Below, piece after piece: positions 38,101 to 53,420 of a stretch of DNA of 64,000 bases; position 1 is the first letter of the stretch; each line of letters begins with the position of its first letter. The stretch comes from Tubiluchus corallicola (Eukaryota > Animalia > Priapulida), in the NCBI GenBank assembly GCA_030141605.1, contig JAQGDQ010000021.1, forward strand, positions 1,116,001 through 1,180,000, written 5' to 3'. A program made the translations under genes and the position numbers. Below the pieces are notes generated by a model that saw only the letters and a program-made list of their open reading frames with translations, did no database searches and was not told the origin of the DNA.

Positions 38101-40881
38101 AAAATCAGTGCCTTTCATGTTTGGCTTCTTATCGCCTTCAGGGGTGTAGTTAAGACTGCAGGAGAAGGTGTTTATTTATAGATTATGATTCATGGCTGGA
38201 TTCTAGAACGTTCTGCGGTTTTAACAGTAAACAAAAGTGAAGGCCGGGCTCCACGGTTTAATAACAAACCATCTAAAAGTGACTAAAATATTGCTGCAAA
38301 GTTGTGAGGCAATTATCATGTCTGTATCTGCCTCCTCGTCAGTATTAATGGTGTTTTCGTAATTATAATTTACTAATGTTCTCTGGTAAGCTTGCGATAT
38401 ACACTAGTAAACAACAAATTAATAAAAAAAACTTCAGTGTTTATGATACGTTAAACCATCTTCATGCTCAGATATTTAAGCCTTTTAAACAAATAAATTA
38501 TGAGCGGCAAAAAACTTCTCAAATAAAACAAACAGACATCTTTTCAAAATTCATCTATCCACATAGTTTCATGCAATTATACCCCTACAATTGTATAAAT
38601 AACTCTTCCCTGTAATAATCATCAATGCATATCGCATGCATTTGCACAACAACATGTCGCAAAATTAAGATATCGTCTTTTTGCTCGTATGTAAAGCATC
38701 AATAATTGTTTACTAAGTTTGTTGCTTTTCGATCGTTCCACCACTTCATGGTTTTTTATGTTGATTAAAATAGCTGAACTGAAGCATGCCAATATTTTCT
38801 TCAATTTCCACGTCACGTAATGTGTCTCTGTTATTACTCTTGCGAATTATAAAGCGTAAATAATATGCTGTACATCTTTCTAAAACATCCGCCCATAGAA
38901 ATACATCCGTTTCGCCCCACCTGTAGAAACTCATCATTTGGTACTTGCCACTTGTATTTTCATAACTAAAACCCCCATCTCTTAAAATCAACTAAAACAT
39001 GAATTATTGTGGTTTCAGCAGAATTCACGTCCTGTGAGTCATCAGATTCTGTGGGTGTTGGGAGTAAAACGAGTTTCAGCTGTGAAAGGTTTCAATTACC
39101 CAGGCAAAAACCCAAATGTATTTATTACAAACATGGAATGTTCTAGATGAAGTCCATTTATATTTAAATAATAACAAAGTGTCTTTCGGTTTCAAACAGG
39201 TTTTATTTGAGTTTTCACATTCGCGAGCTTCGTTAGCAGCTAAAAAACACAACCAATGAATGGTATAAAACGTATACTTGTAATGCAGCACAGGTTTAGT
39301 ACATAAAAACATTTACAAACATTGAGAACGAATAGCATTGCAATTATTTCATTATTTTTCCCAATCCTGAGTAATCGTACTGGTTATTCTACCACTTTTT
39401 TGTTCTAGTTTTCCGCTAATAGAGTTCGTAAGGGCAAAGGCTTGTTTGACACACATGATCATCTTGATAGTTAAAATTAGAATGCCTTAGTTAATTATTT
39501 TTCATTTTAACTTCTATATTATTAGCTATTATAATAATATACAATATTCTACACAATAAAGTCTCAATTAACCAAAATGTGAAATTTTGAACTAAGCTTG
39601 ACCAAAAAGAAAAATCCGCTAAACCTGGATTTGAACCAGGAACTTAATGCCTTGGTCACCAGACCACACCACCCTTTGTGACCACAACAAGTCTTAAATT
39701 ATTTAGATCATTTATTCTATTTATAAAAAAAAGTCATAGTTTTGTTCTTGTTTCATTATACCCTGTCTCAGAAAGGCGCTCATTTGCTGCAGTTTACCTA
39801 AGAAATGCCGCACTCCCTGTTTCCACAGATTCTGAATTACCTTCATTGCCATTGATTATAGTAATCATTATCATTATCAATCACAAACCTTGAAAACTAG
39901 ATAGGTCTTCTTTCTTCTAGTGTACACACGATAACAATAATTTGCCAGTAATTTTTAAAAGAGTGTCGTCTTCGTATTCTAACATGGCTGCCTAACAAAC
40001 AAATATCGAGCAATAGCTTTACGTAGAATAAATGTAGTTGGCATTAGTTAATTGAATGCCATGTTCCTTGAATAAAGTAGCTTTTACGAAAGAGAAGCAA
40101 GCAGAGTTGTTGGCAAAAAGAAAAGCGAAAAAGAAAAAGGAGAACGATAGAGAGACATTTGACCCGCTGCCAAAATTTGCGTTATAAGCTAGATTGAGCA
40201 GTGAGAAGTATGTGATATGGCGACATAACGTGACTAATAAGTCAGGAAAGAGAGAGAGAGAGAGAGAGAGAGAGAGAGAGAGAGAGAGAGAGAGAGAGAG
40301 AGAGAGAGAGAGAGAGAGAGAGAGAGAGAGAGAGAGAGAGGGAGAGAGAGAGAAAGTAGAGTGAAAGAGAATTGAAAAGAAGAAGAGAAAGAGAGAGATA
40401 GAGAGAGAGAGAGAGAGAGAGAGAGAGAGAGAGAGAGAGAGAGAGAGAGAGAGAGAGAGAGAGAGAGAGAGAGAGAGAGAGAGAGAGAGAGAGAGAGAGA
40501 GAAAGAGGAGAAATAGAGAGAAAGGGAGGACAAAAGGGGTAGGGACAGAGAGAAAGAGAGAGAGAGAGAGAGAGAGAAAGAGAGAGAGAGAGAGAGAGAG
40601 AGAGAGAGAGAGAGAGAGAGAGAACTAGAGAGAAAGGGAGGACAGAAAGGTTAGGAAGAGAGAGACAGACCCAGACAGAAAGGGAGAGAGAGGTGGGGGA
40701 GAAATAGAGAGAAAAGGAGGACAGAAGGGGTAGGGACAGAAAGAGAGAAAAAGAGAAAAGAGAGAGAGAGAGAGAGAGAGAGAGAGAGAGAGAAATAGTT
40801 AAACATCAGTATAAATTTTGCTTAACCAACCTTTCTAGCAACTGCAGCGCTCATTCCGTACGTAGGTCCACGATGAGCCAT
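32163..40881 (-). CDS. Myophilin / muscle-specific protein 20 / transgelin-like protein (CH domain plus one calponin repeat), 186 aa using the nearest 51-nt first exon
   Basis: Exons 40881-40831 (MAHRGPTYGMSAAVARK), 34142-34021 (IAGKRDPEQEAEAGKWISDIIGEPQQGAFEDWLRDGQVLCR), 32958-32754 (LMQKILPG...MENITNFQ...DVFQTVDLWEKRNIAQV...IGRV), 32345-32163 (...GMIGLQAGQNKGATQAGQNFGLTRHM*). All GT-AG, 561 nt in frame. Confidence 0.93.
36010..36039 (-). CDS. Possible short divergent alternative first exon (MNFGLSCRWK) of the calponin-family gene
   Basis: ATG...TGG AAG|GTAGGC, phase 0 like the other first exons; only weak peptide similarity. Confidence 0.3.
40247..40795. repeat. (GA)n microsatellite / purine tract
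   Basis: Directly visible. Confidence 0.97.
40831..40881 (-). CDS. Variable first exon V1 (MAHRGPTYGMSAAVARK)
   Basis: 51 nt, ATG...AAG|GTTGGT; TATATAAA on the minus strand at 41009-41016. Confidence 0.88.
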
Positions 40882-43425
40882 TTTTCTAGCACAAACACTG
40901 CACAAAACGGAAATTAAACAAACACACGTCCTTCCTATACTATTCCTCACTCCAGACTAAAACCTATCCCGATAACGTCTGCCAGGATATATTTATTCTC
41001 GACAGAAGTTTATATACAACTGTTCGTATGGTCATTTCTCATTTTTAGATGGGCCCTCCAATAAGGTATTATTGTAAGCTGGATTTACAGTGAAAGAGAG
41101 GGGTCCAGACTACAGCGGATCTGTAGATTTATGTATGACATGTTTTGCTTATTATTCTTGACTATCCCATATGCTGAACGGGGTAAATTGAAGGATTTGT
41201 TTACTCTCAGAAGTATAACTTACAAGAGACAAGAGTTAATGTGAGCCATAGCCTACGTCTAAAAACACTTGAAAATTTGTAAAATGCTGGCCAATATGCA
41301 GGAATGAAATAGAGTGGATTTTGTTTGTTTTACCAAGTGATAAATTCATGTGAATTAATGATTAAGAATTGGGGAAATTACTAAAATAAATCTGTAAATG
41401 GATGTTAACTTTAAGAACATTCCAAGATGTTTTACTGTCTAAGAACACCAATTATATTTTCGTCAGTAGTTCTTTGTTCAGAAATTTTGTTTTTCTGTTA
41501 TACTTTTGAAAAATAGTGGATTTCAGTTTTTTTTAAACACACTAGCACTCAAGCTGATTGTATCATGATATTACCTTAGATAGGTGAACAACTGTTGGCT
41601 TACGTAATTTCTAGTATATCCAGGACAACGAAAATATTGAGAAATATTATGTTATGAAACAAAACTGATAAAAATTAGCTTCTACAAACAAAAAGCATTC
41701 ACAGTGAGTTACTCACACATTATCTAGCTCAATAACACCAAACTCCAAATTAAATTCGCCGCTAACTAATGTCTATTCATTACGTTCCATAATCTAGTAA
41801 CATTAAAATCCTGACTGAAATGTAACACAATTCATCTTAAATGACACGAAATGAAATTTCTCGAAACGTAGAGTTTTAAAACTTTTTGAACAAAACGAGC
41901 TCTGTGATTTAAGTAAAGACGTCAAGTTCTTACGTCAGTGAACCAATATCTACTTCTGTTACTAACTAGGCCTTTCGAAGCGACTGAGAACGTGTAGGCC
42001 TTCTGCTGTTATTGGCCTTTAATACTAAGGTAGCAAGTCAGAGATCCAGAGTTCGAATACGATTCGTGAGTTAATTTTCTTACCTCGTTTTACACACCAT
42101 AACATTCTTAAGCGCATCAGTGTTTTAATCTTTTATTATTGCAAGGTGTCATTTTAAAAGCTGTTCAAATCAAGGCATGAGACAAATACATTCATGCGTC
42201 GTTAATCACAGTGTAAAGTGTCCTCCAAATTATCTGCTTACACTAACGAATATATTAGCAAAAACAGCTATTACAAACAACTAATGAACAATGCATATAA
42301 ACGGCACAAGGGATACATATTTTGTGTTTAAAAACATAACATTTTGATTGCCATAATGTTACCAGATCGATGTAGATAACAAGATACAGCCAGTATTTTA
42401 AAAATAGAAATATTTTTAATCTTAAGTGTTTCATGTGTTCTGTTTCTTTACAACAATCTTTTTATCAGCATTTAATGGTAGCGGAAATATTATGTTTATA
42501 AATTTGCAATCTACATCTCTTTTGCGGTTTAAAAATGTATAGTTTATTACAGACAATTTGTGTAACGTTCGCGTTTTCTTCTTTATTACCATTTCATTTT
42601 TACTTTCTCTTATCCACTCACATCTTGATTCCATTTTTAATTGTCTACATCACAGCGTACAGAGAAATACACTTACACTTTGTGCTACGTAACAACAAAT
42701 AATCTTTTTCGTTTTCTTTTTTCTCTTTGTTCTTCTCCTTTATCCTTATTTTCTTTTCTTCTTCTGTCCCTCTTTCCTTTTCCTTCTGCCTCCTCTTTTT
42801 CTCCACCAATTTCTCCTTCCTCTTCTTTCACTGTTTGTTATTTATATATCAGAAAACTTTCTATGCGCTAAGCAATTACTAACATCTTCAATTCAAAACT
42901 AATATTAGCACAATATGATATTTCCAACTATTTATACGCTCTTGTTTTCTGCCACTTTGCTATTTTACTGACATTAACCTTGGAATTAGTTAACGTACAA
43001 AGTACACAAACACAATTAACCTTCGAGAATCGCAAATGACAGATCATATTGCAAAAAAACCTTCTTTGGTTCAGCTATAATAGGTACTTTAAAATTGCTA
43101 CCATATTCCGAAAATAAGAACTGACCTTATGAAACATTTTAGTGTTTATCGGGGTGCATCTTTACATCAAATTTTTAAGCTTTACTAACATTTTCGTTTT
43201 TATTTTCTTTATATTTACTAACGTAAACAGAGCGGTGTATGAATGCGTGCTTTTTATGGCAATAACTTTTTAAACTTAAACTTAATTAAAAAATTAAAAA
43301 TAAAAGAACTGACTTATATTATGTAGTGTTAAATTATATACACAATTTCCTTATTGACTAGAACTCAGGTATGTACTAAAATCTTCTGCGAAAAGTTTCA
43401 CTTACTGACTCACTGACTAACTCAC

Positions 43426-53369: not shown

Positions 53370-53420
53370 CTTTTGCGCCACTTTGTGGCTCATACCGTAC
53401 GCCGCTGGACGGTTTGCCAT
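53370..53420 (-). CDS. Variable first exon V6 (MANRPAAYGMSHKVAQK)
   Basis: 51 nt, ATG...AAG|GTAAAC. Confidence 0.86.

Follow-up and report, generated by a model that had tools for sequence, protein, structure and literature searches.

A 64,000-nucleotide stretch of the genome of the priapulid Tubiluchus corallicola (assembly GCA_030141605.1, contig JAQGDQ010000021.1, positions 1,116,001 to 1,180,000; hereafter the window, to which all coordinates refer) contains one gene that, judged by its sequence, is a member of the transgelin/MP20 (myophilin) family and that is preceded by six duplicated first coding exons, V1-V6. We conclude that these exons probably serve as alternative starts of a single protein body, with promoters that are likely their own, and would supply nearly the same protein to different muscles, cell types or stages. 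A first-pass annotation of the window had proposed this variable-first-exon architecture, and it is supported by the single body, by purifying selection on the exons, by TATA-like sites, by a join between V1 and the first constant exon (C1) and by the same swap of heads in other phyla; tissue-specific use of the V exons, which it had also proposed, is here a prediction.

V1-V6 all lie on the minus strand with the body 6.7-19.2 kb downstream, and each has a coding part of 51 nt (17 codons) that starts with ATG GCN and ends at a phase-0 AAG/GT donor. They are thus homologous first coding exons that follow one another in tandem and share a splice phase; the six positions, the length, the start, the end and the peptides listed in the first-pass annotation all match the sequence. 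When 127,894 positions were scanned with a profile in six frames, V1-V6 scored 53-70 and the best of all else 18; in leave-one-out profiles each exon was recovered, with scores of 47-66 for the V exons and at most 20 for non-family matches. This gap rules out that the V exons are chance open reading frames. A nucleotide hidden Markov model (nhmmer) detected no seventh or decayed V exon in the window (next E = 1.3), and the one further open ATG...AAG/GT stretch, at 59291-59341, is unrelated to the V exons in sequence. Seven of the 17 head columns are invariant across V1-V6, among them Ser at position 11; the differences among the V1-V4 heads are conservative, while V5 and V6 carry an RP-type head. 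In total, the array consists of five independent exons and one young copy, V3.

Joined to constant exons C1-C3, a V exon yields a protein of 186 residues with a single calponin-homology (CH) domain at the N terminus (PF00307, E 7e-12 on exon C2) and one C-terminal calponin (CLIK) repeat (PF00402, E 3e-10, in one stretch). Members of the transgelin/MP20/myophilin family have a single CLIK repeat and an overall length of about 185-200 residues. The body is identical to the MP20-like protein of Priapulus caudatus at 126 of 169 residues (75%), with Gordionus and arthropod proteins next (108-113). In a tree of 31 bodies the gene is likewise nearest to Priapulus and then to Gordionus, without starred support, and the tree does not decide orthology among the multi-head genes; a structural fold search matched CH-domain structures only (calponins, transgelins, IQGAPs and others). 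F-actin binding and expression in muscle are predicted from family membership alone.

All six starts have one common set of constant exons. By tblastn and a 97-sequence profile, C1, C2 and C3 are each present exactly once in the window, in single copy between the V exons and the neighbouring genes, and the window showed no further CH-domain copy; the first-pass annotation, which had seen no second set of CH exons up to XPO4, is borne out. The V exons as starts of six separate paralogous genes are ruled out by the absence of a second C1-C3 in the 64 kb.

Divergence among the V exons points to purifying selection. V2 and V4 differ at 7 synonymous and 2 non-synonymous codons, as first counted in the earlier annotation, and the alignment scores of their flanks fall in or near the random range. 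Over 14 exon pairs (V2-V3 left out), the pooled proportion of non-synonymous differences (pN) is 0.24 and that of synonymous differences (pS) 0.72, and three disjoint pairs tested for selection gave p = 0.034, 0.0025 and 0.015; flank scores of the 14 pairs are 15-27, compared with a random median of 19 and 95th and 99th percentiles of 25 and 30.

Unlike those of V2 and V4, the flanks of V2 and V3 are related, and these two are a recent head-to-tail duplication. Each unit comprises the exon with its donor and, upstream, about 550 nt, and the two differ by 4.2% substitutions and 18 gaps. A 7-bp microhomology lies at both unit ends and at the junction (44022-44028). Mismatches number 5/246 in the proximal promoter, 14/282 further up, 22/460 in the intron and 3/51 in the exon (significance not computed). 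A second young tandem duplication, of about 970 nt and 94% identity, lies between XPO4 and V6 (57599-58570 and 58801-59772) and holds no V exon; such small duplications appear to be frequent here. Minisatellite arrays occupy 1-2764 (period 42 nt), 29995-30319 (period 35), 56077-56377 (period 60) and 18922-19376 (period 154).

Of the two runs covered, neither recorded as RNA, evidence for joining comes from run X1, which derives from a relative of the source organism and which we guess to be RNA; four of its contigs align in the 90-95% and under-90% bands. Contig 4 omits the C2-C3 intron at its exact ends and links C2 to C1 with 44 divergent letters between. Beyond the C1 acceptor, 26 of 30 letters match V1, compared with 23 for V2, the next best, and 5 for the intron, and all four differences from V1 are synonymous. 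On this one contig of a presumed RNA run, V1 is likely spliced to the body, and V1 is conserved between both organisms. Because contigs drop rare branches, contig 4 says nothing about the use of V2-V6; these are likely joined to C1 as well.

Motifs were defined by their consensus sequences. A TATA-like hexamer begins 95-135 nt before the ATG of every V exon. Between -140 and -85, TATAAA is found in three of five independent exons (background 4.6%, p 9e-4, window chosen post hoc) and [AT]ATAAA in all five (background 11.4%, p 2e-5, window and pattern post hoc); TATA box candidates precede V1, V2, V3 and V5, whereas V4 and V6 have an AATAAA-type site. The initiator-like motif of V2 and V3 lies about 30 nt downstream of the TATA candidate. 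No upstream ATG was found in the predicted 5' untranslated regions (UTRs); the ATG of V6 at -104 precedes its TATA-like site. The old V promoters have no alignable sequence in common. On the whole, each V exon likely has a promoter of its own.

Features of the transgelin/MP20 gene and its upstream region in the window; distances of promoter elements are relative to the ATG.
Feature	Position	Strand	Remarks
V1, variable first coding exon closest to the constant body	40831..40881	-	intron to C1 6,688 nt; joined to C1 in run X1 contig
V2, variable first coding exon	43426..43476	-	
V3, variable first coding exon, a recent tandem duplicate of V2	44687..44737	-	
V4, variable first coding exon	49119..49169	-	nearest V exon to the sole annotated Priapulus caudatus head, 13 of last 15 residues alike
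V5, variable first coding exon with the head that diverges most, RP-x-G type	49888..49938	-	
V6, variable first coding exon, 17 codons	53370..53420	-	intron to C1 19,227 nt
C1, constant exon, 122 nt	34021..34142	-	acceptor is the common phase-0 3' splice site
C2, constant exon, 205 nt	32754..32958	-	calponin-homology domain PF00307
C3, last constant exon, coding part of 183 nt including TAA	32163..32345	-	one calponin repeat PF00402
3' UTR, extent as covered by X1 contigs	31469..32162	-	AATAAA at 32027, 31649, 31373
V2/V3 head-to-tail duplication of promoter, exon and donor	42932..45273		units 1,097 and 1,245 nt
TATA box candidate of V1	41009..41016	-	-135
TATA box candidate of V2	43565..43572	-	-96; initiator-like TCATTT at -64
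TATA box candidate of V3	44825..44832	-	-95; initiator-like TCATTT at -63
TATA-like element of V4	49271..49278	-	AATAAA type, -109, weak consensus match
TATA box candidate of V5	50043..50050	-	-112
TATA-like element of V6	53514..53521	-	AATAAA type, -101, weak consensus match
Last coding exon of XPO4, upstream neighbour; bounds the array, outside it	about 62216..62416	-	E 5e-9 to Exportin-4

Elsewhere in the window, an open stretch of 102 residues between V5 and V6 (50971-51298, plus strand) has no significant Pfam match, and we take it to resemble a pogo/Tc5-type transposase fragment. Exons of an M1 aminopeptidase lie at about 7800-14200 on the plus strand, with ERAP1_C matches at 7743-8042 and 14007-14369. 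On the opposite strand, an intronless frame of 338 residues (5456-6472) encodes a rhodopsin-family G-protein-coupled receptor (PF00001), possibly nested in an intron of the aminopeptidase gene.

Swapped heads also occur in other animals. We compared 30 protein clusters, picked mostly for having several members; the junction allowed 239 of their 474 proteins to be divided into head and body, which yielded 222 different bodies, 15 of them with more than one head. Five were dropped, their second head being non-homologous or truncated (Ischnura X1/X2, a Rhipicephalus model and three truncated entries), and the other ten have two full homologous heads on an identical body, switched at the same junction of K with I or L. 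The two-head sets include Gordionus; Scolopendra viridis, Uloborus diversus and Varroa destructor; Saccoglossus kowalevskii; three sets from Branchiostoma (B. floridae, B. lanceolatum and a hybrid); and one other pair. Thus, four phyla besides that of the source organism have swapped heads, i.e. Nematomorpha, Arthropoda, Chordata and Hemichordata. The RefSeq/UniRef pairs are Gordionus XP_065316480/1, Uloborus X1/X2, Varroa XP_022653541/2, Branchiostoma floridae XP_035687417-22, Saccoglossus XP_006815488/9 and that of Scolopendra viridis; the named genome-based pairs are automatic annotations labelled X1, X2 etc., mostly with consecutive accessions, and were compared as proteins. A search of representatives at 50% identity returned no further named isoforms. 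Six heads is the largest count in this comparison.

The V5 head has its nearest match outside the window, in the hemichordate Ptychodera, with a score of 55 compared with 47 within the window, and RP-x-G heads are also present in more distant family members. Both head types may be old; heads of 15-17 residues are too short to separate ancient origin from recurrent duplication or convergence. In a group of myriapod-like entries from centipedes and millipede-like sources (P0050, P0442, P0443, P0446, P0449, P0042 and P0159), two recurring head types sit on near-identical bodies, which suggests two old orthologous first exons in myriapods. In B. floridae X1-X6 (P0198/P0201 and P0420/P0386), both ends vary: heads of two homologous kinds combine with C-terminal tails that are likewise of two homologous kinds, a pattern suggesting that the last exon of the amphioxus gene was duplicated too.

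A first structural model built from 8 sequences, with residues 1-19 at a predicted local distance difference test (pLDDT) below 50, gave way to one of the Priapulus homologue built from 97. There, residues 1-9 are predicted as coil, with pLDDT 64 in the first block, and residues 10-20 as a helix that spans the junction of the variable and constant parts. This predicted helix may explain the fixed exon length and the conservation of the second half of the exon.

These observations are consistent with the following mechanism. As seen for V2 and V3, a new start arises by head-to-tail duplication of a piece of about 1.1-1.2 kb with promoter, 5' UTR, 17 codons and donor; because the first intron follows codon 17 and the 5' UTR is apparently short and unspliced, about 1 kb would suffice for a complete start at once. 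Transcription would begin about 60-100 nt before each ATG, the cap-proximal donor would be spliced to the shared acceptor at 34142, and downstream V exons, most without a good acceptor, would be skipped. Selection would hold the head because the helix runs across the junction, and the promoters would then be free to diverge beyond recognition. The main product of the array would be a regulatory choice, with residue changes at positions 3-8 and 13-16 as secondary fine-tuning. We further consider it possible, though on balance doubtful, that at least two modules of promoter plus head predate the protostome/deuterostome split and mark muscle or contractile cell types, and that they were later expanded, as in the six here, or replaced by whole-gene duplicates.

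Several observations weigh against the proposal of six starts used in different cells. V1 alone has been seen joined. The X1 contig passes the branch point into V1 only and comes from a relative at most 90-95% alike, in a run whose RNA nature is a guess. The TATA window and pattern were picked after looking, and V4 and V6 have AATAAA only. A motif scan within 600 nt of any V exon found no CArG box or myogenic E-box, and MEF2 matches at V4 only, with a near match at V1. Plausible acceptors precede V1 (at -16, 12/17 pyrimidines) and V6 (at -14, 11/17), compared with 14, 13 and 10 for the real acceptors. V2 and V3 differ at one synonymous and two non-synonymous codons, and their 4.2% divergence is near the level of allelic contigs here (X2 contig versus the window, 11/554 differences), so that a false duplication of two alleles is possible. 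The count of one body covers the 64-kb window, and paralogous bodies may lie outside it. Among the 222 bodies compared, two homologous heads is the most in any other species, and P. caudatus, which at 75% is the closest of the named relatives, forms a cluster of one protein with one head.

The alternative that survives best, which we nevertheless consider unlikely, is that all starts work in the same cells and add capacity for an abundant muscle protein, with birth-and-death turnover and no division between tissues. The near-equivalence of the heads, with their 7 of 17 invariant columns, fits this dosage effect, as do the retention of a young duplicate with its promoter intact and the Drosophila hydra gene, in which first-exon duplicates left tissue specificity unchanged (PMC1904467). 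However, the old promoters share no alignable sequence, and distinct head types recur in myriapod proteins and across Branchiostoma species, a distribution that fits retained specialisation.

Three further explanations have little probability. According to the first, only V1 and perhaps one more exon are live and the others are relics of serial first-exon replacement; V1 is the sole join seen and P. caudatus has one annotated head, but that head resembles V4 and not V1, the window holds no decayed copy, and all six exons keep the ATG, frame, length, AAG/GT and a TATA-like site with synonymous sites near saturation and flanks that cannot be aligned, a divergence at which relics would hardly hold frame, length and donor. 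Just as improbable is a choice by splicing and not by promoter, with the V exons as internal, mutually exclusive cassettes that follow a common leader, either non-coding or trans-spliced: 5' transcript ends are unobserved, and V1 and V6 have acceptor-like sequences immediately ahead of the ATG that would allow it, but V2, V3, V4 and V5 have no pyrimidine-rich acceptor near the ATG (at most 10/17; V5 has no YAG within 60 nt), and the TATA-like hexamers lie at a consistent distance. Equally hard to credit is that protein tuning comes foremost, with heads altering binding, localisation or phosphorylation as in the first exons of plectin and promoter choice only the means; the RP-type head of V5 and V6, with a hemichordate as best outside match of V5, and the invariant Ser11, a position that is phosphorylated in human transgelin-2 (PMC10285543), speak for it, whereas PMC10285543 and 10.1101/2020.04.29.069104 ascribe actin binding to C-terminal sites and not to the head, residues 1-9 are predicted coil at modest confidence, and V1-V4 differ conservatively.

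If the array of starts is as we propose, it adds an ancient actin-binding gene to the few genes whose promoters multiply through duplication of a very small first coding exon, and V2/V3 capture the copying step in the act. The same head swap is found again in ecdysozoans and in deuterostomes, where automatic annotation has apparently overlooked it, and it is probably under-counted, as such exons escape gene finders. Since the isoforms hardly differ, promoter choice could be read directly from counts of junctions; these would provide simple muscle-cell-type markers for little-studied phyla and would test whether subfunctionalisation occurs without duplication of the gene. Were the modules ancestral to bilaterians, the locus would be a single-gene record of muscle-type diversification, readable from six splice junctions.

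The first-pass annotation knew of no such cluster for an invertebrate transgelin/MP20 gene. A search of the open-access literature, with subscription journals and supplements outside it, returned no report of duplicated first exons in transgelin/MP20 genes, and term look-ups found none mentioned in the searched text of a 2023 family review (PMC10285543), a Drosophila transgelin study (PMC8311604), PMC5167519 or 10.1101/2020.04.29.069104. Invertebrate variable-first-exon clusters are known, however, in sDscam and hydra, and the arrangement is not confined to this genome. A close likeness is with the RefSeq/UniRef MP20/myophilin isoform pairs, which have an identical body, homologous heads of 16-17 residues and the same junction, but two heads per species instead of six, and which are known from automatic annotations alone.

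The vertebrate UGT1 and protocadherin clusters, as outlined in passages of PMC1885805, likewise have tandem homologous first exons in one phase with their own promoters and common constant exons, and undergo birth-and-death turnover; there, the large variable exon is the specificity domain and a promoter motif is shared, whereas here 17 codons of a 186-residue cytoskeletal protein vary and the old promoters cannot be aligned. Also related are the 39-40 human events in which N-terminal substitutions derive from tandem exon duplication, where, in the sections of PMC8373072 and PMC9741552 that describe them, a duplicated 5' coding exon and an alternative promoter give homologous N-termini, mostly with two copies instead of six. 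Such events can be very old, the tropomyosin N-terminal event being common to arthropods, nematodes and vertebrates (PMC8373072, PMC9741552); transgelin, TAGLN and calponin are absent from the main text of both articles, their supplementary event lists lying outside the search.

Invertebrate parallels are described in three further sources. In chelicerate sDscam, 5' cassettes are arrayed in tandem, have promoters of their own and are joined to constant exons, but they consist of two or four exons, encode immunoglobulin recognition domains and occur in chelicerates only (PMC4835542). Drosophila hydra has nine tandem alternative first exons that arose by recurrent duplication, at least four of them used, but it is a testis gene that arose recently and de novo, its copies are associated with transposons, and the tissue did not change (PMC1904467); the window gene is ancient, and most of its V copies are old and under purifying selection. 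Caenorhabditis elegans unc-87, of the same calponin-related superfamily, has two promoters and first exons that give tissue-specific muscle isoforms, but lacks a CH domain, and its isoforms differ by an extension of about 190 residues and not by homologous 17-residue heads (PMC4436780). In total, we conclude that the kind of system is already known, also in invertebrates, and that the transgelin case is less unique than thought but more general.

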